A stretch of 64,000 bases of DNA from Sporichthyaceae bacterium (GCA_036269075.1 DATASX010000078.1:15130-79129), one strand, 5' to 3'. Shown: positions 7,015 to 61,850, counted from the stretch's first letter. Notes: generated by a model from the letters alone, not told the origin. A program made the numbers and translations.

Positions 7015-7932
7015 TCAGCGCAACCGCGGGCAGTCCACCGGCGGTGCTTGAGTGAAGTCGACGGCAGTGGTCGTGTTGCCGATCACCGGCGCCGCGGGCT
7101 CGTGGGGGAGGTTGAAGTACATGCTGGTCAGCAGCATGTGATCCTGGCCGTCGTTGTACGCCAAGTGGCGATGCGCGGGGTGATAGAAGCCCTGGCCGGT
7201 GTGATAGCTCTCGCTGGTGTCGCACTTGCCGTCCCGGGCCATGACGTAGCTGATCCGCCCGCCGGTCACGATGTTCACAGCCGGAAGGTGGGAGATCCAG
7301 CCGGTGCTGAACCCGGGATAGAAGTCGACGAAGTCGGCGAACACGTCCATGCCGGGCTTGATGGTCAGGACGGCGCCACCGCCGAACATGCCGGGAACCA
7401 TCTCCGCCGATGCGGGGCTGGTCAGCGAGACCCCCGACGGGGCCGAGGCGGCAGAGAAGTCGCGGCAACCTGCAGGCGCGGCGGCGGTCGGTCCCTCGGC
7501 CAGCGGCTTCTGGGCGCCGAAGGCTTGGTTGATGAAGACGCCGAAGACCTCGAGCGCTTCCTTACCGGAGTTCTGGACCAGATACGTGCCGGCCGGTAGG
7601 ACCGATGCCTGCCCCGCGGCGTAGTCCTTGGTGCTGCACCCATCAGCTCGGCGGACCGTCAACGTGCCCTTGTTCACCGCGAGGATCGTGGCGCCGGACA
7701 GTTGCCGCCACCCGGTCGCACCGCCGGGTGCGACGGAGTACGACCCCATCGCCAGGGTGGCGCCGGGCTTGATCGGCACGGAGACGCCCTCCATGGCCTG
7801 GGCCCGGGTGAGGTCCTTGAACGCGATGGCGCCCGTCGGCGGGGTTGCCATGGCGACGTCCGTACTGAGGACGCTCATCGCCGCGACGACTGTGATGACG
7901 GCCGTCCTGACGAGGGCCGAATGTCTGCGCAT
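7015..7932 (-). CDS. secreted protein with two cupin-like beta-barrel repeats
   Basis: 305 aa with a signal peptide (MRRHSALVRTAVITVVAAMSVLSTDVAMA). Two repeats have cupin-like patterns (GGATGW.....LAVNKGTL.. and GFSTGWISH......GGRISYV). It lies 13 nt upstream of the cupredoxin gene on the same strand. Confidence 0.55.
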   Translation of the reverse strand: MRRHSALVRTAVITVVAAMSVLSTDVAMATPPTGAIAFKDLTRAQAMEGVSVPIKPGATLAMGSYSVAPGGATGWRQLSGATILAVNKGTLTVRRADGCSTKDYAAGQASVLPAGTYLVQNSGKEALEVFGVFINQAFGAQKPLAEGPTAAAPAGCRDFSAASAPSGVSLTSPASAEMVPGMFGGGAVLTIKPGMDVFADFVDFYPGFSTGWISHLPAVNIVTGGRISYVMARDGKCDTSESYHTGQGFYHPAHRHLAYNDGQDHMLLTSMYFNLPHEPAAPVIGNTTTAVDFTQAPPVDCPRLR

Positions 7933-8145
7933 GCTGTGCCTCCACGAGGAGATTCAGATTCGTCGTGCGGGCGGGGGCAGCGTTCACCGGGGCTCCAAAC
8001 CTACTCAGGAAAAACTCAGAAAACTAGTGGAGTCAGGGGCACGAAAGCCGCTTCGGCGCGAGGTCCGCACGCGAGTTGAGCATCTGATCACCATTGATCA
8101 ATCGATCGGGTTTGCCTTACAGTCCTTCCCGACCGAGGAGGACCG

Positions 8146-21432: not shown

Positions 21433-22305
21433 ATGCCCAGTGCCGGGTCGTTCGACCTGCCTCAGCACCCGGACGGGCTGAGGTTTCCGCACACGTCGCA
21501 GATCGTTGTCACCTCGGTGATGGGCGCGCTGGTTCTGGTCTTCGCCTGCTACGCCGTGCGCGAGATCGTCCGGCATCGCAGCTACCTGCTCGCGCTTCTA
21601 CTGGTCGGCGGCGGAATCTCCTACCTCAACGAGCCGATCGATGACGTCCTCGGCTGCCTCTACCACCCCGTCGACGGTCAGTGGACGGTGCTGGACACCT
21701 TCGCCAAGGTGCCGCTGTGGGGCCTGGGCATCTACATCGTGTTCTTCGGCGGCATGCCCTATCTGATCCTGAAGGCCCTTGACCGCGGCGTGACGCGACG
21801 TCAGTTATGGCAGTGGGTGGGCATTCTGTTCGTGGTCGACGTAGCTGTCGAGATCCCGATCCTGGCCCGCGACATGTACGTCTACTACGCCGACCCGCCC
21901 TTCGACCTCGCCGGCTTCCCGCTCTACTGGCTGTTCATCAACGTCGGCGGACCGTTCGAGGTCGCGGTGCTCCTCTACGCGGCCCGTCACCTGTTCACCG
22001 GATGGCGCGCGGCCTACCTGCTCGCGTTGCCGATGGTGTGCAACGCCGCGGGCAGCATCGCCGTGGGCTGGCCGATCTACAGCGCGCTGAACGCGCAGGC
22101 CTCCGAACCGGTGAAGTGGGTCGCCGGCGCCGCCACGATCGCGCTCGGCTACCTGTTGCTCGACCTCACCATCACCTGGGCCGCGCGCAAGTCAGGTCAG
22201 GCAGAACCCGACCGCGACGTCGCGTACAGCGTGTTCCAGACGACGTCGGTGGCCGCGTCCAGCAGCAGTTCCGCCTCGTCGCTGTCGGCCTTGTCCACCA
22301 ACTGA
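21433..22305 (+). CDS. polytopic integral membrane protein, unknown function
   Basis: ATG 21433 lies 3 nt after the LLM stop. About 290 aa with roughly 7 hydrophobic segments. The Ser-rich tail overlaps the convergent TetR gene by about 109 nt. Confidence 0.55.
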   Translation: MPSAGSFDLPQHPDGLRFPHTSQIVVTSVMGALVLVFACYAVREIVRHRSYLLALLLVGGGISYLNEPIDDVLGCLYHPVDGQWTVLDTFAKVPLWGLGIYIVFFGGMPYLILKALDRGVTRRQLWQWVGILFVVDVAVEIPILARDMYVYYADPPFDLAGFPLYWLFINVGGPFEVAVLLYAARHLFTGWRAAYLLALPMVCNAAGSIAVGWPIYSALNAQASEPVKWVAGAATIALGYLLLDLTITWAARKSGQAEPDRDVAYSVFQTTSVAASSSSSASSLSALSTN

Positions 22306-22865
22306 TAGAGACCGCGCTCGAGCATCCAGACGATCCACTTCGCGGTGCGCACCGGGTCCAGCGTCGCGTCCGCACTGCCCTGGCTCTGCGCTTCCGCGAG
22401 GTGCACCGCCAGGCCCTCGGAGACCTGGCCCATGAGCAAGCCCTGCTGGGTGCGAACGCGCTCGTCGTAGGTGGCCACCTCGACCATCGCGCCGAAAATG
22501 ATGTGCGCGCGGCGATAGGTGTCGAAGGGCACCTGGATCCGGGCGCGCAGGTCGGCCTTGTTCCCGTCGTGCGGGAACTCCCACCAGTTGTCCCCGCTGG
22601 CGACCACGTCCGCGACCGCGTCGCCGGCCATCGCGGCCAGCAGGTCGATCTTGTCGTCGAAGTAGTTGTAGAACGCCGACCGGGACATGCCGCCGGCCTT
22701 GATGATCCGCTCGACGCTGAGGTCCCCGTAGGGCTCGCCATCGGCGGCGAGCTTCTCGATCACCGGAATCAAGTGCCGGCTCAGCTGGCGCCGCCGGTCC
22801 TCGCGGGACACGGCAAAGGGCCGGGCGGCGGGGGCATCGACGGACTTCTCAGCGGACTGGGGCAC
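22197..22865 (-). CDS. TetR-family transcriptional regulator
   Basis: 222 aa. VIEKLAADGEPYGDLSVERIIKAGGMSRSAFYNYFDDKIDLL. Confidence 0.85.
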   Translation of the reverse strand: MPQSAEKSVDAPAARPFAVSREDRRRQLSRHLIPVIEKLAADGEPYGDLSVERIIKAGGMSRSAFYNYFDDKIDLLAAMAGDAVADVVASGDNWWEFPHDGNKADLRARIQVPFDTYRRAHIIFGAMVEVATYDERVRTQQGLLMGQVSEGLAVHLAEAQSQGSADATLDPVRTAKWIVWMLERGLYQLVDKADSDEAELLLDAATDVVWNTLYATSRSGSA

Positions 22866-22900
22866 GAATCCAGGGTACCGATTTGTCCGCCGGCGTACAG

Positions 22901-22928
22901 CGTGTCTTGACAGACAGACACCGTGTCT
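22901..22928. promoter_or_regulatory. inverted/direct repeat cluster, candidate TetR operator
   Basis: CGTGTCT (22901-22907), N8, AGACAC (22916-22921), then CGTGTCT (22922-22928). The inner TGTCT-TGAC-AGACA spans 22903-22916. It lies between the divergent TetR (22865) and the flavoprotein (22934). Confidence 0.4.
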
Positions 22929-22933
22929 CCACC

Positions 22934-24295
22934 ATGGACACCATGTCCGAACAGACCGTCCCAGCGGCGGCCGACCCGGTCTTCGTCATCGGCGCGGGAC
23001 CGTCCGGGCTCGCTGCTGCCTACCGACTGCACCAGGCCGGCCGGCGCGTCGTCGTGCTGGAATCCCGCGACCGGGTGGGCGGTCAGCTGCTCACCGTCCG
23101 ACGGGACGGATTCCTCATGGAGGCCGGCACGACGATCCTCCCGGAGGCCTACGGCAGCGTCATGAAGCTGGTTCGCGACCTTGGGATGGCCGACGAGCTG
23201 ATCCCGGCCAACTCGTTGATGGGCTTCATCCGCGGGAGCCAGATGCACTACCTGCGCGCGGACAAGTTGGCGCTGGACGCGGCCCGGACCAAGCTGCTTT
23301 CGACGCGGTCCAAGCTGAAGGTGGCCAAGCTGGTCCGGGACGCGTTCCGGGTGCGCAAGCTGCTGTCCTACGAGGACCTCTCGGTCGCGGGCAAGTACGA
23401 CGTGGAGACTCCGGCGCAGTACTGCGAACGTCGCGGTCTGGACGGCGAGCTCTACGACTACCTGATCGAACCGACTGTGCGTGGTGGCGCCGGGGTTCCC
23501 GCCGAGATGATCTCGGTGGTCGAGTTCTTGTTCCTCTGGCAGAAGGTGCTCGGGACCAAGCTGTTCGCGTTCCGCGACGGCTACTCCTCGTTCCCCCAGC
23601 GGTTGGCCGCGGCACTGCCGGACGTGCGGTTGAACTGCAACGCGGTCGAGGTGGTCGAGACCGGCGACGGCGTGGAGGTCACCTATCTCGGCCCGGACGG
23701 GTTGATCACCGAACGCGCCGCGGGGGCGGTGGTGAGCTCGATGGGCAACCTGGTTCCGGACCTGGTGCCGCAGCTGGAGCCGGACCGAGCCAAGTTCCTG
23801 CGCGAGCTCAACTACACCTCGACGATGTCGATAAACCTTGCGCTGTCGCGAATCCCGCAGTGTCCCGCCTCGTTCGTCGTGGTGCCGAAGCCGGTGTCGG
23901 AGGGTCTGTTCGCGGTCATTCTCGAGCACAACAAGGCACCCGGGCGGGCGCCTGCCGGCAAGGGCCTGATCTCGCTGTTCGTCATGAACCAGTGGGCGAT
24001 CGACCGGATGGACGCGACCGACGACGAGGTTCTCGACGCCGCGCTGGCCGAGCTGGACAAGGTCCTGCCGGGCGTTCGCGCCGACGTCGAGTTCAGCCGG
24101 ATCAATCGCTGGTACCCGGTGCTGGTCTACAGCCACCCGGGTCTGTACCGGGACCTCGGCCGCTTCCATGCGGCCCGGGATCTGACCAGTCGGATCCACC
24201 TGGCGGGCTCGTACAACTCCTCCGGCAACGTCAACACCGCCACCACGGCCGGCGAGCGGGCCGCTCGTGAACTGCTGGCCGCCCTGCCGCGCTGA
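22934..24295 (+). CDS. FAD-dependent oxidoreductase (amine-oxidase/protoporphyrinogen-oxidase-like fold)
   Basis: ATG 22934 (MDTMSEQTVPAAADPVFVIGAGPSGLAAAYRLHQAGRRVVVLESRDRVGG). C-terminal HLAGSYNSSGNVNTATTAGERAA. Confidence 0.8.
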   Translation: MDTMSEQTVPAAADPVFVIGAGPSGLAAAYRLHQAGRRVVVLESRDRVGGQLLTVRRDGFLMEAGTTILPEAYGSVMKLVRDLGMADELIPANSLMGFIRGSQMHYLRADKLALDAARTKLLSTRSKLKVAKLVRDAFRVRKLLSYEDLSVAGKYDVETPAQYCERRGLDGELYDYLIEPTVRGGAGVPAEMISVVEFLFLWQKVLGTKLFAFRDGYSSFPQRLAAALPDVRLNCNAVEVVETGDGVEVTYLGPDGLITERAAGAVVSSMGNLVPDLVPQLEPDRAKFLRELNYTSTMSINLALSRIPQCPASFVVVPKPVSEGLFAVILEHNKAPGRAPAGKGLISLFVMNQWAIDRMDATDDEVLDAALAELDKVLPGVRADVEFSRINRWYPVLVYSHPGLYRDLGRFHAARDLTSRIHLAGSYNSSGNVNTATTAGERAARELLAALPR

Positions 24296-24322
24296 AGCAA
24301 CACCGTCCGGTCTGTCCGTCAG

Positions 24323-25762: not shown

Positions 25763-26058
25763 TGACCGCGCTGCGTACGCAGTGGGACCGCACCGGTGCG
25801 ATCGTGGCTGTGATCATCGGTCTGGTCTCGCTGCTGCTGGGCTATCTGGGCGTCAGCGACACCGAGTACATCGTCAAGCAGATGCCGTACATCATCTCCA
25901 ACGGGTTGTTCGGCCTGTTCATGCTCGGCATCGGCACGGCCTTGTGGCTCTCGGCCGACCTGCGCGACGAATGGCGTGAACTGCGTGCGCTGCGCATCGC
26001 CGTCAACGAGCACGGCATCGCGGCCCGGACCGATGACGAGGGCACCGCGAGCCGATGA
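25753..26058 (+). CDS. module A protein 2: conserved 2-TM miniprotein (unknown family)
   Basis: 101 aa. LRTQWDR...GLVSLLLG (TM1), PY..SNGL.G.F.LG (TM2), SADLRDEWRELR. It overlaps the protein 1 stop within ATGGAAGTGATGA. Paralog at 57415. Confidence 0.75.
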   Translation: MEVMTALRTQWDRTGAIVAVIIGLVSLLLGYLGVSDTEYIVKQMPYIISNGLFGLFMLGIGTALWLSADLRDEWRELRALRIAVNEHGIAARTDDEGTASR

Positions 26059-26591
26059 CGACCGCTGTGCGCGAACCGCGCGTGCGCCGCGCCGCAACCC
26101 GAACCGGGGGCCCACGGGTGCCGGCCTACGTGACGGCGTCGAAACGGCGCTCCCGGGGCGAGGTGGTGCTCGGCGATCGCCCGTGGGGTCGCCGCGACCG
26201 GGACATCGCGATCGGCGGGAGCGTGCTCGGCCTGGCCGGGCTCGCGGTGTGCAGTTGGGGCGGCGCCGGTGAGGTCGACCTGGCAACCCAGATGCGTTGG
26301 CTGCTCGGGGGAATCGGCGCCGTCGTGGTCTCCGCCCTCTGCCTGGTCCACTGGCTGTTGGCGGGCTTGCGGACCGTGCGGATCGAGATGGCCCGGGTGT
26401 TCAGCACGATCACGCCGAACCGATCTGTGGTGGGTGCCGCGGCGACCGGCGGCCGGGTCGTGACCGTGGCCGGCATGGTGCGCTTCCACCGACCCGAGTG
26501 CCCGCTCGTGGCGGGCAAGGCGATCCGCGTGCTCGACCCGGCCGACGCTGCCGCCGAGGGGTTGCGTCCCTGCGGAGCGTGCGAGTCATGA
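26055..26591 (+). CDS. module A protein 3: 2-TM membrane protein with C-terminal Ada-like H/C3 metal-binding motif (unknown family)
   Basis: 178 aa. Arg-rich N-terminus, two TM segments, C-terminus VRFHRPECPLVAGKAIRVLDPADAAAEGLRPCGACES. ATGA overlaps on both sides. Paralog at 57725. Confidence 0.75.
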   Translation: MTTAVREPRVRRAATRTGGPRVPAYVTASKRRSRGEVVLGDRPWGRRDRDIAIGGSVLGLAGLAVCSWGGAGEVDLATQMRWLLGGIGAVVVSALCLVHWLLAGLRTVRIEMARVFSTITPNRSVVGAAATGGRVVTVAGMVRFHRPECPLVAGKAIRVLDPADAAAEGLRPCGACES

Positions 26592-28543
26592 ACGCCTACA
26601 TCCCCTTCATCGTCACGGGATTGATCGTCGGGTCGATCTACGGCCTGTCCGCGATGGGCCTGGTACTGACCTACAAGACCTCCGGGTTGTTCAACCTCGG
26701 CCACGGCGCGATCTGCGCTGCCGCCGCATTCGTCTTCTACGAACTGCGCCAGGTGCACGGCGTCCCGTGGGCAGTGGCAGCCGTTGTCACGGTCGTTGTC
26801 TTCGGCGCCGCGACCGGCCTGGTGCTGGAACGCCTCGCCGGTGCGCTGTCCGGGGTGACCACCACGTACAAGATCGTCGCCACCGTCGGTCTGCTGGTTG
26901 CCGTCCGCTCGATCGTGATCCTGATCTGGGGATCCGAGCAGCTCACCTTCGAGCCGTTCCTGCCACAGGGCAAGGCATTCGGGGTCTCCAACGTCTCGGT
27001 CAGCTGGGACAACGTCATCGACATGGCCCTCGGGGTCGCCGCGGCTCTCGGCCTGTCGGTCTTCTTCCGAACCTCTCGGCTGGGCGTCGCGATGCGTGGC
27101 GTCGTCGACAACCCGGCGCTGCTCGACATGGCAGGCACCGCGCCGGCGAAGGTGCGCCGGACCGCATGGATCATCGGCTCGATGTTCGCGGCCGTCTCCG
27201 GTGTGCTGTTCGCCTCGGTGACTTTCCAACTCGACGTGAACGTGCTCTCGCTGCTGGTCGTCCAGGCGTTCGGGGCCGCGGCGATCGGGCGGTTCACCTC
27301 GATCCCGATGGCCTTCGTCGGCGGCCTGACCGTCGGCCTGGTGCAGAAGTTGGTGTCCAAGGAGTTCGCCGGGGAAGTGGTGCTGCGCGGCATCGATCTG
27401 AACGTGCCGTTCATCATCCTGTTCATCGCGATGCTGGTGACTCCCAAGAGTCGCCTGCAGGAGATCGGGCGCAAGGTGAAGGATCGGGCGCCGACTGCCG
27501 GCTCGTTCAGCGTCAGGACCCGCGGCGCCGGCTACGCCGTCCTGCTGGGCGCCGCGCTACTCGTGCCACACCTGGTCGGCACTCGACTCTCGCTCTACAG
27601 CACCGGGCTGACCCAGGTGATCCTCTTCCTCTCCCTCGGCCTGCTGGTGCGGACCTCCGGACAGATTTCCTTGTGCCACGTGGGTTTCGCCGCGGTCGGT
27701 GCCGCCGCCTTCGGACACATGCTGCACGACGGCCTGCCCTGGGGCGTCGCACTGTTGCTCGGCGGCCTGTTCGCTGTCCCGGTCGGGGCGTTCATCGCGA
27801 TCCCCGCGATCCGCCTGTCCGGGCTGTTCCTCGGCCTGGCCACTCTCGGGTTCGGGATCCTGCTCGCGCAGTACGCCTACGGGCAGAGCTGGATGTTCGG
27901 GTTCGGTCGGCTGGACACCCGGCGCCCACACTTCGGCGGCCTGGACTCCGACACGCGTTACTACTACTTCGTGCTCGCCGTCGCGCTGGCCTGCGTCGTC
28001 GCCGTCGTGCTGGTGGAACGCTCCCGGCTCGGCCGACTGCTGCGCGGCCTGGCCGACTCACCGGCGGCGCTGACCTCGCTCGGGACCAACCTGAACATGA
28101 TCCGGGTGATGGTGTTCTGTCTGTCGGCGTTCCTGGCCGGGATCAGCGGGGCGATGTACGCCTCACTGTTCGGCAGCGTCAATCAGGACAGCTTCAACTA
28201 TCTGCAGTCGCTGGTTCTGCTCGCGGTACTGGCCATCTCCGGTCGCGGCACGGTGACCAGCGCGGTGCTCGGCGCCCTGTTGCTCTACGTGCTGCCCGGC
28301 TACATCGACAACCCGGACCACCTCTCGTTGCTGCAGGTCGGCTTCGGCCTGGCCGCGATCCTCGCCGCCGCGCTGTCGCAGGGCCAGTTCGCCGAGGTAG
28401 TCGGACGGGTCGCCGCGGCCGGACGACAACGAACGCTCAGCCCCTGGCGCGACCGCATGGACCCGGTGCACCAGTTGCCCCCCGAACTGCTCGTCAGCTC
28501 CGCGACCCACGAGCCTTTGCTGACCACTGGAGTACATCGATGA
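26588..28543 (+). CDS. fused LivH/LivM-type branched-chain-amino-acid-family ABC permease
   Basis: ATG 26588 (MNAYIPFIVTGLIVGSIYGLSAMGLVLTYKTSGLFNLGHGA is a LivH-like N-terminus). The second half is LivM-like (GQISLCHVGFAAVGAA..., IRLSGLFLGLATLGFG). 651 aa in a single polypeptide. Confidence 0.9.
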   Translation: MNAYIPFIVTGLIVGSIYGLSAMGLVLTYKTSGLFNLGHGAICAAAAFVFYELRQVHGVPWAVAAVVTVVVFGAATGLVLERLAGALSGVTTTYKIVATVGLLVAVRSIVILIWGSEQLTFEPFLPQGKAFGVSNVSVSWDNVIDMALGVAAALGLSVFFRTSRLGVAMRGVVDNPALLDMAGTAPAKVRRTAWIIGSMFAAVSGVLFASVTFQLDVNVLSLLVVQAFGAAAIGRFTSIPMAFVGGLTVGLVQKLVSKEFAGEVVLRGIDLNVPFIILFIAMLVTPKSRLQEIGRKVKDRAPTAGSFSVRTRGAGYAVLLGAALLVPHLVGTRLSLYSTGLTQVILFLSLGLLVRTSGQISLCHVGFAAVGAAAFGHMLHDGLPWGVALLLGGLFAVPVGAFIAIPAIRLSGLFLGLATLGFGILLAQYAYGQSWMFGFGRLDTRRPHFGGLDSDTRYYYFVLAVALACVVAVVLVERSRLGRLLRGLADSPAALTSLGTNLNMIRVMVFCLSAFLAGISGAMYASLFGSVNQDSFNYLQSLVLLAVLAISGRGTVTSAVLGALLLYVLPGYIDNPDHLSLLQVGFGLAAILAAALSQGQFAEVVGRVAAAGRQRTLSPWRDRMDPVHQLPPELLVSSATHEPLLTTGVHR

Positions 28544-30069
28544 GAACCCGTAACGGCACGGCGGTCGCGCTGGTCGCCACGAGCGCATTGCTCCTGACCG
28601 GATGCGGCAACCGCGTCTCGGAGGCCCGCATCGAGGCCGCCAACTCCGCCGTCATGAAGCTCAGTGACCAGCAGCTCAAGGACGCCGGGATCAACCCCGC
28701 CACGGCGCCGCAAACCACCGACAGTGCCGAGACCACAGCCACTGCGACCAACTCGGCCGCCGTGGCCACTGCCGCGGCGGCGCCGGTTCGCGCCGGCGCC
28801 CCGGTCACGGCAGGCGCGGCAGCCGGCGGGGTCCCCGCGGCGGCCGGGACCGGCAGCACGGCCGCCACCGTCGCCGCGGCGGGCGCGCCCAAGGCCCATA
28901 CCGTCGGCGCGGCGCTCACCACCGCGTCGGGTGCCTGCACGAGTTCGCTGCCGCCGGTGTTGCTCGGCCAGACTGGCGTGTTCAGCGGGTTCATCGGCGC
29001 CGTGGGCGCAGGCGCCCGGCCCGGGCTGCAGGTCTGGGCCAAGGACCTCAACTCCCGTGGTGGGCTGGCCTGCCACCCCGTCGAACTGATGCAGCTCGAC
29101 GACCAGTCCGACCCGGCCAAGGTCACCGCGAACGTGCTGGACCTGGTCCAGAACAAGAAGGTCGCGGCGCTGATCGACGCCTACGTCCCGATCACCGTCG
29201 GCCCGTACCGGGAAGCCGCCGCGAAGTTCAAGATGCCCACCATCGGTGGGGACAACATCGACCTGGACTGGAACAAGGATCCCTACCTGTTCCCGGTCGG
29301 GGCCTCGCCACTGGGCACCTACCTGGGCAGCATCAAGTCCGCCGCGGAGTCCGGACACTTCAAGAAGTTCGGCATCCTCTACTGCGTCGAGGCCACGATC
29401 TGCGGCGTCCTCAAGGAGTCGACGACCTCCAAGGGTGGGTTGGCCGACCAGGCCGGTGTGCAGACCGTCTACAGCGCGCCGTTCTCCTTGACGCAGCCGG
29501 ACTTCACCTCCGAGTGCCAGAACATGAAGAACGCCGGCGTGCAGTTCGCGTTCGTGGGCGGCGACGGCTCGGCGGTGTCCCGGGTGGCCCGCGCGTGCAA
29601 CAGCCTCGGCTTCAACCCGACCCTGAGCACGGTGAGCCTGGCTGCCGGATCGGCTGTCCAGAGTGACAAGTTGGTGGCCGGCGACGGGCTCTACCTCGGT
29701 TCGTTCCTCGCCCCGTTCCCGGCCGACGACACCCCTGGCCTGAAGGAGTACCACGCCGCGTTCGAGCGCTACGCGCCGACGCTCACCCTCGACGGCGCCT
29801 CGATGATCGCCTGGTGCTCCGGCAAGTTGCTGGAGGCGGCGGTGAACACTCTCGGAGCCCAGGCGCGCTCCGGCCCGCTGACCACGGCTCTGATCATGAA
29901 GGGCCTGGGCAACATCAACGGCGAGACACTCAACGGTCTCAGCCCGCCGATGACGTTCAAACCGGGTCAGCAGTTCGCGCCGGCCATCAACTGCTACGCC
30001 GTGATCGCCCTCACCGCCCGCGACGTCAAGTTCCGGGCGCCCGAGGGCACGAAGTTCCACTGCCAGTGA
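28540..30069 (+). CDS. lipoprotein substrate-binding protein (Leu/Ile/Val-type fold) with long low-complexity linker
   Basis: ATG 28540 overlaps the permease stop (ATGA). Lipobox LLLTGC. An Ala/Thr/Gly/Pro linker of about 110 aa precedes the SBP domain. Confidence 0.85.
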   Translation: MRTRNGTAVALVATSALLLTGCGNRVSEARIEAANSAVMKLSDQQLKDAGINPATAPQTTDSAETTATATNSAAVATAAAAPVRAGAPVTAGAAAGGVPAAAGTGSTAATVAAAGAPKAHTVGAALTTASGACTSSLPPVLLGQTGVFSGFIGAVGAGARPGLQVWAKDLNSRGGLACHPVELMQLDDQSDPAKVTANVLDLVQNKKVAALIDAYVPITVGPYREAAAKFKMPTIGGDNIDLDWNKDPYLFPVGASPLGTYLGSIKSAAESGHFKKFGILYCVEATICGVLKESTTSKGGLADQAGVQTVYSAPFSLTQPDFTSECQNMKNAGVQFAFVGGDGSAVSRVARACNSLGFNPTLSTVSLAAGSAVQSDKLVAGDGLYLGSFLAPFPADDTPGLKEYHAAFERYAPTLTLDGASMIAWCSGKLLEAAVNTLGAQARSGPLTTALIMKGLGNINGETLNGLSPPMTFKPGQQFAPAINCYAVIALTARDVKFRAPEGTKFHCQ

Positions 30070-30079
30070 CGGGTCGTCA

Positions 30080-30907
30080 GTGATGAGCGCGCAAACGAGA
30101 TCGAGCGACGTGGACGGCTTGGCCGTCGAGAAGCTGACGGTCCGCTTCGGCGGTCTGACGGCGGTCGACGGGCAGACGCTGACCGCTCCGCGCGGCCGGA
30201 TCACCGGGCTCATCGGGCCCAACGGTGCCGGTAAGACCACGACGTTCAATGCCTGCACGGGCGTGGTCCGGCCCAGTGCCGGTCGGGTTTCCCTGTTCGG
30301 TCAGGACATCACCACCTGGTCGCCGGACGCCCGGGCACGCAACGGCATGGGCCGAACCTTCCAACGGATGGAACTGTTCGACACCCTCACCGTGCGGGAG
30401 AACGTCCGGCTCGGCAAGGAGGCCGGTCTGGCGGGCAGCAATCCTTGGCGGGCGTTGCGATCCAGCCGTGCGCAGGCCGCGGCCGTCCGTCGCCTGGCCG
30501 ACGACGCGATGGACATGGTGGGAATCGGCGATGCGGCCAACCGGCGCCCGGCCGATCTGAGCACCGGCGCGCGCCGGTTGGTCGAACTGGCCCGCTGCAT
30601 CGCGGGCGGTTTCACGGTGATGCTGCTCGACGAACCCTCCTCGGGCCTGGACGGGACCGAGACCGAACAGTTCGGCGGGGTGCTGCGTCGCCTGGTGGCC
30701 GAGCGCAACGTGGCGATCCTGATCGTGGAGCACGACATGGAGTTGGTCATGACCACGTGCAACTACATCCACGTCCTGGACTTCGGCAGGCCGATCTTCG
30801 AGGGCACGGCGCGCGAGGTCGCGTGCTCCCCGTTGGTACGCGCCGCCTATCTGGGTACGGAGGCCGACGGCCTGGACGAACTCGCCGGCACCGGGGCGGT
30901 CGGCTGA
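30080..30907 (+). CDS. ABC transporter ATP-binding protein, LivG-like
   Basis: 275 aa. Walker A GPNGAGKTT, signature LSTGARRLVELAR, Walker B MLLDEPSSGL. Confidence 0.9.
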   Translation: MMSAQTRSSDVDGLAVEKLTVRFGGLTAVDGQTLTAPRGRITGLIGPNGAGKTTTFNACTGVVRPSAGRVSLFGQDITTWSPDARARNGMGRTFQRMELFDTLTVRENVRLGKEAGLAGSNPWRALRSSRAQAAAVRRLADDAMDMVGIGDAANRRPADLSTGARRLVELARCIAGGFTVMLLDEPSSGLDGTETEQFGGVLRRLVAERNVAILIVEHDMELVMTTCNYIHVLDFGRPIFEGTAREVACSPLVRAAYLGTEADGLDELAGTGAVG

Positions 30908-31605
30908 TGCTGAGGCTGGACTCGATCCGTGCCGGTTACGCCGGTTCCACCGTGCTGCGCGGCGTCAGTCTGCTGGTGCCCCCGTCCAGCGTGGTCGCGT
31001 TGTTGGGTCCGAACGGGGCCGGCAAGACCACGTTGCTGCGGGTGGCCTCGGGCCTGCTGCGTCCGACCTCCGGCCAGGTCCTGCTCGACGGCCGGGACGT
31101 CAGCCGGTACGCCCCGCACAAGTTGGTCGAGCGCGGGGTCTGCCACGTGCCGGAGGGCCGCGGCGTGTTCCCGTCGCTCTCGGTGCGGGAGAACCTGATC
31201 CTGCATTCCAGACCCGGCACGGAATCCGAGTCGGTGGAGAAAGCGGTGTCGGCGTTCCCGCGGCTGGGGGAGCGGCTTTCCCAACAAGCGGGCACGATGA
31301 GCGGCGGCGAGCAGCAGATGCTCGCGCTGGCGCGGGCGTATGTGCAGAACCCCCGCTTCGTGCTGCTCGACGAGGTCTCGATGGGCCTGGCCCCGAAGAT
31401 CGTCGACGAGATCTTCGACTTCCTTCGGCTGCTGGCTTCGCAGGGCGCCTCCTTGCTGCTCGTCGAGCAGTACGTGACCCGCGCGCTGGAGGCCGCCGAC
31501 TACGTCTACCTGCTCGGCCGGGGAACCGTGACCTTCTCCGGCGAGCCGGGAGAACTCGACGCCGACGCGTTGGCCGAGCAGTACATCGCGGCCGCCCACA
31601 CCTGA
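30907..31605 (+). CDS. ABC transporter ATP-binding protein, LivF-like
   Basis: ATG 30907 overlaps the LivG-like stop. Walker A GPNGAGKTT, VPEGRGVFPSLSVRENL, signature MSGGEQQMLALAR, Walker B VLLDEVSMGL. Confidence 0.9.
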   Translation: MLRLDSIRAGYAGSTVLRGVSLLVPPSSVVALLGPNGAGKTTLLRVASGLLRPTSGQVLLDGRDVSRYAPHKLVERGVCHVPEGRGVFPSLSVRENLILHSRPGTESESVEKAVSAFPRLGERLSQQAGTMSGGEQQMLALARAYVQNPRFVLLDEVSMGLAPKIVDEIFDFLRLLASQGASLLLVEQYVTRALEAADYVYLLGRGTVTFSGEPGELDADALAEQYIAAAHT

Positions 31606-31617
31606 GGAGAAGAAGGC

Positions 31618-32346: not shown

Positions 32347-32424
32347 GTCGACTCCCGGGGTTCTGGTGCCCCGGTTCCCGCGGGGGCTAGGGTCCGAGCA
32401 CGCCCCGCGTCCCCGGAGGTTCCG

Positions 32425-55975: not shown

Positions 55976-57424
55976 ATGTCGCGCTCAAGACGTCGGCGAT
56001 CGCCGGTCGCGAAATGGCTCGGTTCCGGGTTGGCCGCGGCCGCGGTGGTCGGGACGGGCACGTTGGTGTGGAGCCCGCCGGCAAGTGCCGATGCCGGCTC
56101 CTTCTACGAAGCGAGTGCGCGCTCCGCGGTGGCCGACGGGTACTTCACGAACTCGACCATTCCCGGTGGCGTGAAGCCCGAGGGTGGTGGCCCGGAGACC
56201 GACGTGGCGCAGTCCTCGCTGAGCAAGGGCGACGCGAACGCCTCGTTCCCGTACTTCGGCGACTATGTGCCGACCGCCCCGGGCGTCGTGTCCGGCCTGT
56301 TCGGCTTCCCGGTACCCCCCTATCCGCTGACCGCGTCGTCGACATTCGGCAGCGAACCGGGCAAGGCGAATTACCCGGGCATCGAGCTCAGCGCGGTGAG
56401 CCGGGCAAATTCGACGGTGGCCGACGGTGTGTTCGGCTCGGCGGGATCCGGCGCGGTGTCTCACTCAGAGGTTGATCAGACTGCCGACAACCAGATCACG
56501 GCCTCGGCCGTCGCGTCCTCGCCGTTGACCAACCTCGGCCCGTTGGTCAGCGTCAAGGGCCTGGAATCGACGGTCTCGGTGCTGGCGGACGCGACTGGTG
56601 CGTTGACCCGGACCTCGAATTTCTCCATCGACGAAATCTCCGTACCGGGTCTGGTGCTGCGCATTCCGGAGCGGACACCGGGATCGGTCCCGCTGCCCTT
56701 CCCGGTCCCCGTGCCAGGGGTGCCGGCTCCGCAGCCGATTCCGTTGCAGCCCTTCCCGATACCCAACGGCGGCACGACGCTGGTCGAGCCCAGGATCGGA
56801 TTCATCAACGGCTATTTCGTGGTGACGCAGCCGTTCGGCGCGGACTCGCGCAAGTACGTGGTACCCGCGGACGCGGTCGTGCAAGCGTTCAAGGCGCAAG
56901 GCGTCGCGCTGAACTACACAGCTGCGGCGCTCACCAAGAACGGCATCACCGGTGGCGTTTTCGCGATCAACTACACCTTCGCCGCTCCTCCGGACAACCC
57001 GTTCTACAAGGGCCCGACGCCGACCACATTCATCCTCGGAGCCACCTCGGCCTCGGTGCAGCGGGCGGCGCAAGCCGGCGCGGTAGTGGCAGCGGGGACA
57101 TCCGGCAATTCGGCCGTCCCGGGCGTGCTGCCCGGCGGGCCGTTGGCGCAGGCACCGGACGTGGCCAACGTCGTTGGGCCGGCGACCGCGCCCGCGGTCG
57201 GCCCGGTGCCCACGACTGTCGGTGGGATTCCTACGGTGAACTTCCAGCCGCAGCATCCCGGGGTCGTGTCACACATCAGATCCACGCTGATGGCGGCGGG
57301 CCTGCCCGCCTTCGCGGCCAGTGATTTCTCCGGCCTCTACCTGGCGCTGGTTGGTCTGGCCGGCCTCGGCCTGGTGGCCGTGACGGTTGTCGTCGCTAAG
57401 GGAGTGTCGGCGCGATGGAACTGA
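55976..57424 (+). CDS. module B protein 1: secreted, C-terminally anchored envelope protein (paralog of 24323..25762)
   Basis: 482 aa. MSRSRRRRSPVAKW... signal ending PPASA|DA. Shared blocks ASFPY.GD, APG..SGLFG, ANYPGI.L, VPG...RIP..TPG.VPLP.PVP, A.PP.NP.Y.G. Pro/Ala stalk and C-terminal TM. Confidence 0.8.
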   Translation: MSRSRRRRSPVAKWLGSGLAAAAVVGTGTLVWSPPASADAGSFYEASARSAVADGYFTNSTIPGGVKPEGGGPETDVAQSSLSKGDANASFPYFGDYVPTAPGVVSGLFGFPVPPYPLTASSTFGSEPGKANYPGIELSAVSRANSTVADGVFGSAGSGAVSHSEVDQTADNQITASAVASSPLTNLGPLVSVKGLESTVSVLADATGALTRTSNFSIDEISVPGLVLRIPERTPGSVPLPFPVPVPGVPAPQPIPLQPFPIPNGGTTLVEPRIGFINGYFVVTQPFGADSRKYVVPADAVVQAFKAQGVALNYTAAALTKNGITGGVFAINYTFAAPPDNPFYKGPTPTTFILGATSASVQRAAQAGAVVAAGTSGNSAVPGVLPGGPLAQAPDVANVVGPATAPAVGPVPTTVGGIPTVNFQPQHPGVVSHIRSTLMAAGLPAFAASDFSGLYLALVGLAGLGLVAVTVVVAKGVSARWN

Positions 57425-57738
57425 TGAACTTGCTCCGCACCCAGTGGGACCGGGCGATGGCCATCCTTTGCGCCATCGGCGGGTTGGTGTCCCTGCTCCT
57501 CGGATGGATCGGCACCAGCGGCACGGCGCACGTCGCGGCTCAACTGCCCTACCTCGTCTCCAACGGGCTGACCGGCATCTTCCTGCTCGGTGTCGCGGCG
57601 GTGCTGTGGATCAGCGCAGACCTGCGGGACGAGTGGCGTGAGCTGCGCCGCGTCGGCACCCTGCTCGACCGCGAACTGAGCGAGCGTCACAACGGTCGCC
57701 TCGCCGAGCAGGCGTCGGGCTCTCATGCCCGCGCTTGA
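57415..57738 (+). CDS. module B protein 2: conserved 2-TM miniprotein
   Basis: 107 aa. LRTQWDRAMAILCAIGGLVSLLLG...PYLVSNGLTGIFLLG...SADLRDEWRELR. It has the same ATGGAAsTGATGA overlap junction as copy A. Confidence 0.8.
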   Translation: MELMNLLRTQWDRAMAILCAIGGLVSLLLGWIGTSGTAHVAAQLPYLVSNGLTGIFLLGVAAVLWISADLRDEWRELRRVGTLLDRELSERHNGRLAEQASGSHARA

Positions 57739-58324
57739 GACGAGGACGGCTGATCTGACACGCACCGCGGACAAGCGCCGCCCGCCCGAGCCCAGTGCCA
57801 CCGGCCCGGTGAACCCGCGGCGGCGTCGGCGTTATCTCCGCGAGCCGCGGCCCTGGCGTAGCTCCGACCTGCGGCGTGCCCTCGCGCTGCTGCTGGTCGG
57901 CGCGGCCGTCTCGGTCTGGGGTTGGTTCGAGGTCAGCGGCAAGGTTCGGTTGCGCGACCAGCAGGGCTGGGCGGCGTTGGCCTACCTCGGCGCGGCGATC
58001 GCGGCATGTGGCGGGGTCTACCTGGTGACCGTCTCGATGCGTGAGGTCCGCCTCGGCCAACGCCAACTGATGTTCGACCTCGCCGATGTCATGGGATGGA
58101 ACGTCTCCGTCATCCAACGCGGCCGGCTCCGGTTGCACGCCGGCGACGAGTCGGGCGCGGCGCTCGCCGAGCACACCGACGCCGGCGTCCTGGTCACCGG
58201 CCCCGGGATGACCTTCGTGCACCGTGCCGAATGCCCGATCACCCGTGGCAAGGCCGTTTCCGGAATCAGCGCAGCGGATGCTGCGGCGCGAAGCCTCGCT
58301 CCGTGTGGGGTGTGCCGGCCGTGA
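57725..58324 (+). CDS. module B protein 3: 2-TM membrane protein with Ada-like H/C3 motif
   Basis: 199 aa. Arg-rich N-terminus, 2 TM segments, C-terminus MTFVHRAECPITRGKAVSGISAADAAARSLAPCGVCRP. Its stop overlaps the permease GTG (GTGA). Confidence 0.8.
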   Translation: MPALETRTADLTRTADKRRPPEPSATGPVNPRRRRRYLREPRPWRSSDLRRALALLLVGAAVSVWGWFEVSGKVRLRDQQGWAALAYLGAAIAACGGVYLVTVSMREVRLGQRQLMFDLADVMGWNVSVIQRGRLRLHAGDESGAALAEHTDAGVLVTGPGMTFVHRAECPITRGKAVSGISAADAAARSLAPCGVCRP

Positions 58325-60273
58325 AGGAATACCTCCCTTATCTGATCTTCGGCGTCGTCACCGGTGCCATCTACGGCATCTGCGCCATGGGTCTGGTGCT
58401 GACGTACAAGACCTCCGGTGTCTTCAACTTCGGGCACGGCGCGGTGTGCGCGCTGTCCGCCTACGCATTCTTCGACCTGCGTCAGCAGCAGGGGATCGCC
58501 TGGCCGGTGGCCGCGATCCTCGTGGTGTTCGTGATGGGTCCGATCGTCGGCCTGTTGATGGAGCGACTGGCCGCCGGGCTGGCCCCGGTGTCCACGGCGT
58601 ACAAGATCGTCGGCACGGTCGGTCTGCTCGTGTTCATCCAGGCGCTGATCGTGCTGCGCTACAGCGGGCAGGGCCGCCGCTTCGACTACTTCCTCCCGCA
58701 GAACCGGGCTTTCTCCGTCCAGGGCGTCAGCGTCACCGTCGATTCGTGCATCACCGTCGGCATCGGTGCCGCCGCTGCCGTCGGGCTGTTCCTGTTCTTC
58801 CGTTACACCCGGCTCGGCACCGCGATCCGCGGCGTGGTCGACGACCCGCAACTGCTCGACATGACGGGTGAATCGCCGACCAAGGTCCGCCGCACCGCGT
58901 GGATCATCGGCTCGATCTTCGCGTCGGCCTCGGGCATTCTCTTCGCCTCCACGCAGCAGCAGGTCGACGTCAATGTGTTGTCGATCCTCATCGTGCAGGC
59001 CTTCGGTGCGGCGACCATCGCCCTGTTCCGCAACCTGCCGATGTGCTTCGTCGGTGGGGTCATCGTCGCTCTCGCGCAAAAGTTGGTCTCGAAGGATCTC
59101 TCGTCCGGGCACGAACAACTGGCCGGCCTGGACCTCACGATCCCCTTCATCGTGTTGTTCGGCGGCCTGCTCGTGATCCCGCGGAAGTACCTGGTGGAGG
59201 TCGGCCGCCAGGTGAAGCCACGTGCGGCCAAGGCAAGTCGGCTCGCCCTGCGCGACCGACGGATTCTCATGGCCGTCATGGTCGGGGTTGCGCTCTCCAT
59301 CCCCGCGTTCTCCGGTACCCACCAGATCGCGTGGAACGTCGCGCTGACCCAGGTCGCGTTGTTCATGTCGCTGCACCTGCTGGTGCGCGTCTCGGGTCAG
59401 ATCTCGTTGGGTCAGATCGGGTTTGCCGCGATCGGCGCCTCGACGTTCGCGCACATGCTCAGCCACGGCCTGCCGTTCCTGCTCGCGCTGCTGATCGCCG
59501 GTCTGGTGTGTGTGCCGGTCTCCCTGGTGATTGCGGTTCCCGCGATCCGGCTGTCGGGTCTCTACCTCGGTCTGGCGACATTGGGCTTCGGCATCGTGCT
59601 GAACCAGTTCTTCTACGCGAAGAAGTACATGTTCGGCTTCGGCAGCGTGGAGACTCAGCGGCCCAGCTTCTGGGACATGGACCGAAGCGACACGCACTAC
59701 TACTACCTGCTGATGGCGATCGCGTTGGCCTCGGTCTGTCTCGTGCTCTGGATCGAGAGGTCCCGGCTGGGTCGCCTGCTCCGCGGGATGGCCGACGCCC
59801 CCGTGGCACTGTCGACGCTCGGGCTCGCGGTCAACGTCTCGCGGACCCTCGTGTTCTGCGTCGCAGGGTTCCTCGCCGGCATCAGCGGCGCACTGTATGC
59901 GTCGATGTTCGGCTCGGTCAGTGCGGAGAGCTACTTCTTCGTGCAATCGCTGATCGTGCTCGCCGTCCTCGCGATCTCCGGGCGCCGCACCTTCGTGTGC
60001 GCCATGGTCGCGCCGGTCCTGCTCTACGTCGTGCCGAACTACATCACCAACCCGAACTTCTTCGAGTGTCTGCAGATGTTCTTCGGCCTTGCCGCGATCG
60101 CTGCCGCGGTCGGCTCGCAGGGCGCCTTCGAGCGCTGGTTTGCAGCGACTGCAGCCCGCTATACATCCCGTCGCGTCGGTCCGGCCTCCGTCCGGGTCGA
60201 GGACTATCTCGAGCAGAAGGCCGGGGGCGCCGTGGCTGCCCTCGACCGCGAGCCGGTTGGAGCTTCCCGATGA
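58321..60273 (+). CDS. fused LivH/LivM-type ABC permease (paralog of 26588..28543)
   Basis: GTG 58321 (VKEYLPYLIFGVVTGAIYGICAMGLVLTYKTSGVFNFGHGA). The second half carries GQISLGQIGFAAIGAS and IRLSGLYLGLATLGFG. Confidence 0.9.
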   Translation: MKEYLPYLIFGVVTGAIYGICAMGLVLTYKTSGVFNFGHGAVCALSAYAFFDLRQQQGIAWPVAAILVVFVMGPIVGLLMERLAAGLAPVSTAYKIVGTVGLLVFIQALIVLRYSGQGRRFDYFLPQNRAFSVQGVSVTVDSCITVGIGAAAAVGLFLFFRYTRLGTAIRGVVDDPQLLDMTGESPTKVRRTAWIIGSIFASASGILFASTQQQVDVNVLSILIVQAFGAATIALFRNLPMCFVGGVIVALAQKLVSKDLSSGHEQLAGLDLTIPFIVLFGGLLVIPRKYLVEVGRQVKPRAAKASRLALRDRRILMAVMVGVALSIPAFSGTHQIAWNVALTQVALFMSLHLLVRVSGQISLGQIGFAAIGASTFAHMLSHGLPFLLALLIAGLVCVPVSLVIAVPAIRLSGLYLGLATLGFGIVLNQFFYAKKYMFGFGSVETQRPSFWDMDRSDTHYYYLLMAIALASVCLVLWIERSRLGRLLRGMADAPVALSTLGLAVNVSRTLVFCVAGFLAGISGALYASMFGSVSAESYFFVQSLIVLAVLAISGRRTFVCAMVAPVLLYVVPNYITNPNFFECLQMFFGLAAIAAAVGSQGAFERWFAATAARYTSRRVGPASVRVEDYLEQKAGGAVAALDREPVGASR

Positions 60274-61850
60274 CCAGCAACCCCCGCACGGGCGCAATGC
60301 CGCGCCGCATCGCTGCGGTCGCAGGCCTGATGGCCCTCGTGATTCCGCTGTCGGCCTGCGGCACCCGGGAGTCGAGCGACCAGATCGCGGCGGCCGATGG
60401 CTCCGCCATTCATCAGGTCGCGGCGGCGGACAGCGGGGCGACGGCGGGTACGAACACCGGCGCTCCGACCGGCGCCACCACGGACACCGGCGCGGTGGCC
60501 GCAGCGCCCGTTGCGGCCACCGGTGGCACGGCCGCCGCGCCCGCTGCCGGCGCGGCCACAACGACCACGCAGGCCGTGAGCGCCAAGGGCCCGACCGCCG
60601 GCGGAACGACTACGGCCGGCGGTACGACCGCCGGTACCAAGGCAAGCAGCGCGAAGAGCAGTGCCGCCGTCTCGACCGGCGGCGCAACCGTCCCGACCGG
60701 GGCGGATGCCCCCTGCACGAAAGCGCTCGGCCCGGTGGTGATCGGGCAGACCTCGCCGTCCTCGGGCATCATCGGCGCCTCGACATTCAACATGCGGGCG
60801 GGCCTCGCGCTGTGGGCTCGGGCCATCAACGCTGCGGGCGGCGTGCAGTGCCACCCGGTGCAGCTGTACCAGATGGACGACGCCGCCGACCCCGCCCGCG
60901 TCACGTCCAACCTCGATGACCTGGTGAACAACAAGCATGCGATCGCGATTGTCGGCGCCGGGGTGCCCACCACCTTCGCCGCGGCGAAGCGGTTCGCCGA
61001 GCAGAACAAGGTGCCCTTCGTGGGCGGGGACATGATCGAGGCCGGCTGGTTCTCCAGCCCGTGGATCTTCCCCCAGGGCGGCGGTCCGCTGGCGGCCTAC
61101 GCCGGTGCAACGAAGGAAGCGGCGGAGAAGGCCGGCACCAAGAAGGTGGGCCTGATCTACTGCGTCGAGGCCGCGATCTGCGGCACCATCAACGAGAACT
61201 TCGAGGCGATGGCCAAGGCCTCGGGCCTCGAGGTGGTGCTGCGCAAGGTCTCCTCGATCACCTCGCCGGACTACACCGCCGAGTGCCAAGCGCTCAAGGC
61301 CGCCGGTGCCCAGGCAGTTTTCGTGGCGCTGGAGGGATCGGGTGACGCCCGCTTCGCCCGCTCGTGCCTCTCGCTGGGTTACGCACCGCCCGCGGCCACC
61401 TCAGCCCTGTCGGTGAGTGCCGAGGCCGCGCTCGACCCGAACTTCCGCAAGCTGGGAGTCTTCCTCGGCACCGGCAACGCGCCCTATCAGGCCGACGACA
61501 CCCCAGGGGGCCGGTTGTTCACGGCGGCCTACGACACGTTCGCGCCGGGCTCGTCCATCGACCAGAACACCATCAGCCAGTGGACCTCGGGCAAGCTGTT
61601 CGAAAAGGCCGTCGCGAACGTCTTCCAGGAGGCGCGCAGCGGCCCGATCACCCGGGAAATGGTGTTGGAGGGTCTCTGGAAGATGAAGAACGAGAAGCTC
61701 AACGGACTCACGCCGGGCGTCACGTTCAACGAGAACGCGCCGCCCAAACAGAACGACTGCTACGCGCTGCTCAACCTGACGCCCACGGGCTACACCGCGC
61801 CCAAGGGCTCGAAGTTCGACTGCTTCGCCGGCCTGCCCAAAGGCTTCTAG
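60270..61850 (+). CDS. lipoprotein substrate-binding protein with long low-complexity linker (paralog of 28540..30069)
   Basis: ATG 60270 overlaps the permease stop (ATGA). Lipobox PLSAC. An Ala/Thr/Gly linker of about 120 aa precedes the SBP domain. Confidence 0.85.
   Translation: MTSNPRTGAMPRRIAAVAGLMALVIPLSACGTRESSDQIAAADGSAIHQVAAADSGATAGTNTGAPTGATTDTGAVAAAPVAATGGTAAAPAAGAATTTTQAVSAKGPTAGGTTTAGGTTAGTKASSAKSSAAVSTGGATVPTGADAPCTKALGPVVIGQTSPSSGIIGASTFNMRAGLALWARAINAAGGVQCHPVQLYQMDDAADPARVTSNLDDLVNNKHAIAIVGAGVPTTFAAAKRFAEQNKVPFVGGDMIEAGWFSSPWIFPQGGGPLAAYAGATKEAAEKAGTKKVGLIYCVEAAICGTINENFEAMAKASGLEVVLRKVSSITSPDYTAECQALKAAGAQAVFVALEGSGDARFARSCLSLGYAPPAATSALSVSAEAALDPNFRKLGVFLGTGNAPYQADDTPGGRLFTAAYDTFAPGSSIDQNTISQWTSGKLFEKAVANVFQEARSGPITREMVLEGLWKMKNEKLNGLTPGVTFNENAPPKQNDCYALLNLTPTGYTAPKGSKFDCFAGLPKGF

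Follow-up and report, generated by a model that had tools for sequence, protein, structure and literature searches.

Among the closest described relatives of the protein analyzed in this work are the ADA_N-like domains, i.e., the group into which Pei, Schaeffer, Cong and Grishin (Proteins 2025, PMC12353581) widened the Ada-N group of the ECOD classification. Its members include the C-terminus of the ribosomal protein L4 (RplD) of Cutibacterium, an LGFP protein of M. tuberculosis, two secreted C. difficile proteins (Cwp27 and a ComEC protein), as well as ArfC (Rv0901) of M. tuberculosis, a membrane protein with an N-terminal transmembrane (TM) helix. The function of these domains was called undetermined by the authors, and neither ATP-binding cassette (ABC) transporters nor a His ligand are mentioned in that paper. 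Here, we describe a putative member of this group, P3a, encoded at positions 26055..26591 (+ strand) of a 64,000-nucleotide (nt) stretch of high-GC, actinobacterial DNA of a Sporichthyaceae bacterium (the whole analyzed stretch is referred to as the window). In a preliminary description of this DNA it was stated that no membrane-anchored Ada-type finger had been described, which is outdated, since ArfC has already been placed among the ADA_N-like domains (PMC12353581).

The predicted P3a protein (178 amino acids, aa) is composed of an Arg-rich, presumably cytoplasmic N-terminus, a 2-TM hairpin, a linker, and a C-terminal ADA_N-like finger, and its gene is the third one in a seven-gene operon (P1, P2, P3a, LivHM, SBP, LivG, and LivF, where SBP stands for substrate-binding protein) that encodes a Liv-type (HAAT) ABC transporter. 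To our knowledge, characterised importers of this type have neither accessory membrane subunits nor cytoplasmic regulatory domains. What is new is the genomic pairing of a hairpin and a finger with a fused-permease HAAT transporter, the fold being already known. We consider it about an even call that P3a serves a HAAT ABC transporter of actinobacteria as a dedicated accessory subunit in the membrane, carrying a non-catalytic zinc finger for which a polyanion is the favoured ligand.

The finger of P3a, its family and its membrane anchor

In the NCBI database, P3a is 100% identical to a "hypothetical protein" of a Sporichthyaceae metagenome-assembled genome, and it has 20 orthologues (47-67% identity), all of them metagenomic and without a protein name. 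The MTTAVREPR start is common to P3a and all 20 orthologues, hence the start codon is right and, judged by this conservation, P3a is a real gene. Its C-terminal sequence, VRFHRPECPLVAGKAIRVLDPADAAAEGLRPCGACES, exactly matches the one quoted in the preliminary description. The putative zinc-finger domain (26454..26588, + strand; residues 134-178, 45 aa) has the pattern H145-x3-C149-x23-C173-x2-C176 and constitutes the extreme C-terminus, with only two residues following the last Cys. The ligand codons are located (on the same strand) at positions 26487..26489 (His145, CAC), 26499..26501 (Cys149), 26571..26573 (Cys173), and 26580..26582 (Cys176), and the four residues are invariant across the 20 orthologues.

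Searches of Pfam and NCBIfam with the whole P3a protein gave no match. When the C-terminus was excised, PF02805 (Ada_Zn_binding) was the sole family matched in Pfam, and the score (E 0.017, 15.6 bits) stayed under the gathering cutoff of 23 bits. The same family was matched by one of the 20 orthologous fingers, for which NCBIfam yielded just a spurious YbcJ match, and a shallow profile of these 20 sequences did not retrieve Ada from the PDB. When the finger profile was searched exhaustively with HMMER, the number of representative clusters retrieved at E ≤ 1e-3 was 1,321 (95 at E ≤ 1e-10), and a 71-sequence family profile was drawn from them. With this profile, the first four ranks in the PDB were occupied by the N-domain of E. 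coli Ada (1adn, 1u8b, 1zgw, and 1wpk; E 0.003-0.011), and the RPxC and RPCxxC motifs were aligned in register with those of Ada. The hhalign comparison of the family profile with residues 1-81 of Ada (92%, E 5.7e-7, 42 columns) paired H145/C149/C173/C176 with C38/C42/C69/C72 of Ada. In the AlphaFold2 (AF2) model of the isolated finger, the predicted local distance difference test score (pLDDT) was 94.1, and the only credible Foldseek matches of this model in the PDB were 1wpk, 1zgw, 1u8b, and 1adn (prob 0.82-0.97, TM-score 0.59-0.66, root-mean-square deviation 2.0-3.3 A, 30-31% identity, E 0.1-0.35), the next match having an E-value of 8.6. The full-length P3a model brought helical-hairpin noise only.

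Taken together, the family profile, hhalign and the modelled fold support a real, but remote, homology of the P3a finger to the Ada N-domain. The Ada-like character proposed in the preliminary description thus stood. Loss of the His and Cys ligands in orthologues and lack of profile similarity to the Ada zinc domain had been named there beforehand as grounds for giving up the proposal; the ligands proved invariant and the similarity was found with the 71-sequence profile, and the structure prediction recommended there led to Ada as well. The Ada zinc-site sequence given there agrees with the segments RPSCR (39-43) and NASEALAAGFRPCKRCQP (57-74) of the PDB alignments, the spacer is indeed of 23 residues (26 in Ada), and the His placed at the position of Ada Cys38 was recovered in both the PDB profile alignments and the hhalign pairing. 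Naming Cys38 as the methyl acceptor of Ada is in agreement with a review (PMC10814553), though Cys69 is given in the ECOD paper (PMC12353581).

It should be stressed that P3a falls outside PF02805 in the strict sense. The ligand pattern of that family is C-x3-C-x26-C-x2-C, whereas P3a has H-x3-C-x23-C-x2-C; the nucleophilic Cys38 is absent, with His145 aligned at its position; and the order of domains found in Ada, i.e., an N-terminal domain followed by an AraC-type helix-turn-helix (HTH), is not the one of P3a. On profile homology (the hhalign result and Ada as the top PDB match of the family profile) and on the modelled fold (the four best Foldseek matches all being Ada-N), the protein nevertheless fits the ADA_N-like group of ECOD. 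Two other identities were considered and set aside, namely a zinc anti-sigma (ZAS) domain, as the modelled fold is beta-rich and C-x2-C comes 23 residues after H-x3-C, and a mitoNEET-like 3Cys-1His Fe-S cluster, homology to a mononuclear zinc site being the simpler reading.

For the survey of ligands, 190 domain instances were taken from the 150 best matches of the finger-profile search. The first ligand was His in all 190, preceded by Tyr or Phe ([YF]H), and the 23-residue spacer was present in 162 of them. His is therefore the norm of the family and the Cys4 site of Ada the exception, so the earlier view of this residue as a peculiarity of P3a was not borne out. One protein (P0027) was dropped from the set of relatives as a Cys-free repeat protein. 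All names of family members in the databases are "hypothetical protein".

Two TM segments and one C-terminal finger, as in P3a, were counted by a crude hydropathy criterion in 83 of the 146 top proteins. The full-length alignment of 44 members showed conservation of P-W before TM1, G-x-S-G ... Q-x-x-W in the outside loop, W-L-L-x-G-x-R past TM2, and the finger itself, with a linker of varying length in between. Other architectures comprise a hairpin with two fingers, 5-8 tandem fingers, and a signal peptide with two fingers. In the actinobacterial proteins P0106, P0076, and P0144, an N-terminal hairpin and two His-Cys3 fingers are accompanied by a long Ala/Pro/Lys-rich linker resembling histone tails, and by their sequences these proteins look like membrane-tethered nucleoid-binding proteins. 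In proteins P0025, P0064, P0083, P0125, and P0161, acidic His-Cys3 fingers (VWVVDG.P.YH..GC ... EDGF.PC..C) are repeated in tandem 5-8 times, with Ala/Pro-rich linkers between them; two of these proteins, P0025 and P0064, exceed the cutoffs of Ada_Zn_binding and DUF6233 (PF19746), although only as whole-protein scores summed over the repeats. For DUF6233, with a cutoff of 27.6 bits, there was no match to P3a, E 0.12 for one orthologue, and E 1.3e-4 (22.4 bits) for P3b, the paralogue of P3a encoded in the same window. A literature search on DUF6233 found no mention of this family.

The fingers differ in charge depending on the architecture. The mean net charge is +3.2 over 43 residues for the hairpin-tethered fingers and -2.3 for the multi-finger and secreted relatives. 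Moreover, conserved basic residues surround the ligands in the hairpin-tethered fingers (R-Y-H-R, VAGK, and GRRPC), comparable with R39, R43, and R67 of Ada.

The 2-TM hairpin of P3a (26205..26369, + strand; approximately residues 51-105) has a short acidic outside loop (EVDLATQ). Its hydrophobic segments were placed by hydropathy at about residues 51-69 and 87-105, and the helices of the AF2 model span residues 46-71 and 76-118. Averaged over the diverse set of 44 family members, 3.8 Lys/Arg residues occur within the 15 positions past TM2, compared with 0.9 in the inter-TM loop, and from this positive-inside bias the finger is predicted to face the cytoplasm. All these observations are consistent with the two-TM anchor and cytoplasmic finger suggested in the preliminary description. 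The hairpin is also paralogous to that of the neighbouring P2 protein (hhalign 96%, E 2e-9).

Linkage of P3 genes to Liv-type transporters

The strongest functional clue, absent from the preliminary description, is the conserved and translationally coupled linkage of the P3 genes to transporter genes. In the window, ATGA overlaps are present at the P2/P3a, P3a/LivHM, and LivHM/SBP junctions. The gene order P1, P2, P3, LivHM, (sometimes SBP), LivG, LivF is repeated in three orthologous contigs, and it was also found for all five distant family members examined (23-31% identity to P3a). A scan of GTDB species representatives for the finger motif brought 20 actinobacterial loci, belonging to Sporichthya, an Actinomycetota metagenome-assembled genome, Mycobacteriales, Streptomyces, and Kitasatospora. 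A LivHM-type permease is encoded directly downstream in 18 of the 20, and one further locus (L010) has LivG/LivF only. The verrucomicrobial match (L013, Verrucomicrobiia) was rejected from the scan as it has no CxxC, and L023 is probably a false match.

In the loci of Streptomyces and Kitasatospora, P1 and P2 are absent and a lone hairpin-finger gene is located 7 nt upstream of LivHM. In three loci of these genera (L011, 7494..8174; L006, 7422..8198; and L010, approximately 7641..8141) a P2-like outside loop (GVSGE.FVEQQ.PY) and the finger occur in one protein, which also has a Pro-rich tail and a long acidic linker of low complexity. This combination suggests that P2 and P3 may have arisen by duplication of a single gene of the hairpin-finger type.

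As regards the operon in the window (all genes on the + strand), P1 (24323..25762; about 479 aa, with an uncertain start codon) would combine a large extracytoplasmic region with an Arg-rich signal peptide and a TM anchor at the C-terminus. No relative of P1 was found in Pfam, NCBIfam or the PDB; judged by eye, its large region has a beta-rich look with a Pro-rich stretch. It is always the first gene of the cluster, with homologues at the same position in L001-L004, L007, L024, L028, and L029. In L028 and L029, P1 is present and there is no binding-protein gene inside the cluster, from which a role of P1 on the substrate side might be surmised. P2 (25753..26058) is a finger-less 2-TM protein of 101 aa, whose stop codon overlaps the start of P3a. 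It belongs to no family of Pfam or NCBIfam, it is present in every examined cluster other than those of the Streptomyces type, and among P1, P2, and P3 it is the best conserved (44-62% identity, also in L001, L024, and L026-L029), with an invariant LSADLRDEWR motif past TM2.

The start of LivHM (26588..28543) overlaps the stop of P3a; this gene encodes a fused LivH/LivM-type permease of 651 aa with two BPD_transp_2 stretches. It is followed by the SBP gene (28540..30069), which overlaps the permease stop and encodes a lipoprotein with a long Ala/Thr-rich linker, and by the genes of the LivG-type (30080..30907) and LivF-type (30907..31605) ATPases, both assigned by tblastn homology and joined by a TGATG junction. 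P3a is thus encoded together with the constituents of a HAAT operon, namely the LivH/LivM permease, two ATPases of the ABC_tran family, and a binding protein of the Peripla_BP_6 type. This assignment is based on a direct BPD_transp_2 match of the window permease and, for PF13458 and ABC_tran, on related clusters and the second cluster of the window; the SBP was assigned by homology, as Peripla_BP_6 proteins (PF13458) are encoded at the same position in related clusters. Scans of the whole window against Rfam and of positions 22000-32500 for promoters and terminators gave nothing informative.

The whole cluster is present in the window a second time, as a diverged copy (55976..63232) in which the order P1b (55976..57424), P2b (57415..57738), P3b (57725..58324, + strand), LivHM-b (58321..60273), SBP-b (60270..61850), and LivF-b (62528..63232) is retained. 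P3b (199 aa) also combines a 2-TM hairpin with a His-Cys3 finger (H166-x3-C170-x23-C194-x2-C197), and in BLASTP it is the finger alone that aligns with P3a (52% over 44 aa). The two binding proteins are lipoproteins with 42% identity, and in both of them the lipobox is separated from the binding-protein fold by a low-complexity, Ala/Thr-rich linker (about 130-150 residues); of the two, PF13458 was confirmed for SBP-b only (residues 155-490). The place expected for LivG, between SBP-b and LivF-b, is taken by a TetR_N regulator gene (61851..62531; E 1.3e-16) in back-to-back orientation, and this cluster appears to have one ATPase gene only.

Upstream of the first cluster, a divergent TetR/EthR-like regulator gene (22197..22865, - strand) and a gene of an FAD amine oxidase (22883..24295, + strand), ending 28 nt before P1, were identified. 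Two other contigs (one of them L003) have this pair ahead of the cluster as well, but L001 and L029 do not.

Possible roles of the finger

In the favoured reading, the P3a hairpin, paralogous to that of P2, would put the 45-residue finger on a flexible linker in the cytoplasm, where His145, Cys149, Cys173, and Cys176 would hold one metal ion, most probably Zn(II). With an invariant His in place of the activated Cys38 thiolate, the finger would be a static binding module and not a suicide methyl acceptor, and methyl acceptance in the manner of Ada is unlikely for P3a. A Zn(His)(Cys)3 site would have a net charge of -1, equal to that of the methylated, DNA-binding Ada; according to He et al. (2005), methylated Ada is reportedly the state with tight DNA binding. 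We infer that P3, together with P2, associates physically with the transporter as its accessory subunit. The ligand of the finger is a matter of speculation, and our guess is a polyanionic phosphodiester surface, which would be the backbone of a nucleic acid, the ligand of Ada, or, as a second choice, the anionic inner leaflet of the membrane; the transporter-associated hairpin would keep this ligand at the membrane. A polyanion is favoured because the hairpin-tethered fingers are basic, because Arg and Lys flank their ligands as in Ada, and because ADA_N-like domains occur on proteins dealing with nucleic acids (Ada, ComEC, and ribosomal protein L4; PMC12353581). The histone-tail-like linkers of the two-finger hairpin relatives are in line with such a ligand. 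A bolder extension, which we regard as doubtful, is that P1, P2, and P3 form a three-protein add-on turning the Liv transporter into a signalling or tethering device, in which the finger would bind mRNA or DNA of the operon at the membrane, constitutively mimicking methylated Ada, and would couple uptake to gene expression or to co-translational assembly.

Several observations weigh against the assignment of P3a as a transporter subunit with a polyanion-binding finger. The finger falls short of PF02805 on score, ligand set, spacer, and architecture. The net charge of the P3a finger is about +1, so the argument from a basic surface is weakest for P3a itself, and the basic charge of the hairpin-tethered fingers may be no more than the positive-inside bias of cytoplasmic segments close to the membrane. 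A 45-aa finger lacking an HTH cannot bind DNA in a sequence-specific manner. The motif used in the genome scan was narrow (R[YF]HR[PRA][EDQ]CPLV), so the proportion of transporter-linked loci (18-19 of 20) covers a subset of the family. Synteny is no proof of physical association with the transporter, and the metal, binding, and transport roles across the family are predictions from sequence.

The most serious rival is that the finger acts as a protein docking or regulatory module on the LivG/LivF ATPases or on loops of LivHM, tuning assembly or ATPase activity with no nucleic acid involved, in analogy to the C-terminal regulatory domains of other ABC importers; we consider it possible rather than probable. 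The same synteny and translational coupling apply to it, the near-neutral finger of P3a would suit it, and the invariant juxtamembrane LSADLRDEWR segment of the finger-less P2 looks like a protein contact site. However, secreted and multi-finger proteins without a transporter share its conserved non-ligand positions (V, G, [YF]H, CPL, G, and PC), hence no transporter-specific surface is evident on the finger, and the second cluster, which is without LivG, keeps P3b.

It is unlikely that P1, P2, and P3 constitute an independent cell-envelope module, merely neighbouring the transporter, so that P3a would not work with the ABC system at all. The three genes always occur together in clusters of the Sporichthya and Mycobacteriales type, and no known transporter-related domain was found in their products with Pfam and NCBIfam. 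Yet the Streptomyces and Kitasatospora loci, devoid of P1 and P2, retain the hairpin-finger gene directly upstream of LivHM, the P3a and LivHM frames overlap by ATGA, and the transporter genes were kept in the duplicated cluster. Still less credit is given to a labile metal or redox sensor, in which zinc loss or thiol oxidation at the His-Cys3 site would switch the transporter, by analogy with ZAS factors (H-x3-C-x2-C): the invariant ligand set and a superficial H-x3-C ... C-x2-C likeness would fit such a role, but the modelled fold is beta-rich and of the Ada type, not the helical one of ZAS, the same site is present in secreted proteins, for which cytoplasmic redox sensing makes no sense, and the surroundings of related clusters contain no conserved genes for redox or metal functions.

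Finally, a convergent or accidental likeness to Ada, with the P3a domain being a generic, unrelated small zinc knuckle, is barely plausible: the sub-threshold PF02805 matches (one of the 20 orthologues; a point that also counts against the subunit assignment), the failure of the 20-sequence profile to find Ada, and the Foldseek E-values of just 0.1-0.35 would allow it, but Ada is ranked first by all of the independent methods, its four ligands aligned with those of P3a, the cutoffs of PF02805 (54.5 and 40.9 bits as whole-protein scores, no single stretch clearing the cutoff alone) and DUF6233 (42.7 and 39.4 bits) are exceeded by multi-finger relatives that the P3 profile retrieved, and the ECOD curators assigned the same homology to sister domains (PMC12353581).

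Comparison with described systems

Compared with the ADA_N-like group, P3a is alike in its remote but supported homology to Ada-N, the C-terminal location of the domain, and the Gram-positive host, and it shares membrane anchoring with ArfC. As far as the description of ArfC allows the comparison, P3 differs in having a 2-TM hairpin in place of a single N-terminal helix and an intact metal site, that of ArfC being described as deteriorated (PMC12353581). The tie of P3 to a Liv-type ABC transporter is a context absent from that paper. Were P3 a true subunit, it would give the first functional context for an ADA_N-like finger, which is spread over at least 1,300 representative clusters and has no known role outside Ada.

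With the N-domain of E. coli Ada, the modelled P3a finger shares a fold in which three strands and a helix are followed by a turn with CxxC at the C-terminus, the register of the ligands, the F-x-R-P-x-C and G-[FL]-R-P-C-x-x-C motifs, and 30% identity over the domain. It differs from Ada in lacking the first ~25 residues of that domain, in the shorter spacer (23 vs. 26), in having His for the nucleophilic Cys38, and in being C-terminal and membrane-tethered, with neither an AraC-type HTH nor an O6-methylguanine (O6-MeG) transferase behind it. The methyl-accepting Cys4 site of Ada is thus the exception within a much larger His-Cys3 family, which bears on the evolution of the repair and sensor chemistry of Ada. 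DUF6233 is likewise a short actinobacterial H-x3-C ... C-x2-C domain, and the multi-finger relatives score above its cutoff; unlike the P3 proteins, it has no known link to membranes or transporters and no described function, and it does not match P3a.

Like the HAAT (LivHMGF/LivJ) importers, the system described here has a LivH/LivM permease, a LivJ-type binding protein (Peripla_BP_6 family), and LivG/LivF ATPases; it differs in the fusion of the permease halves into a protein of about 650 aa and in having as many as three additional membrane proteins (P1, P2, and P3). We know of no counterpart of these three in characterised Liv systems. The hairpin-finger gene is tied to the fused LivH/LivM permease in several actinobacterial lineages, including the cultivable Streptomyces and Kitasatospora, and, if P3 is indeed a subunit of the transporter, this arrangement would represent a new architectural class of ABC importers.

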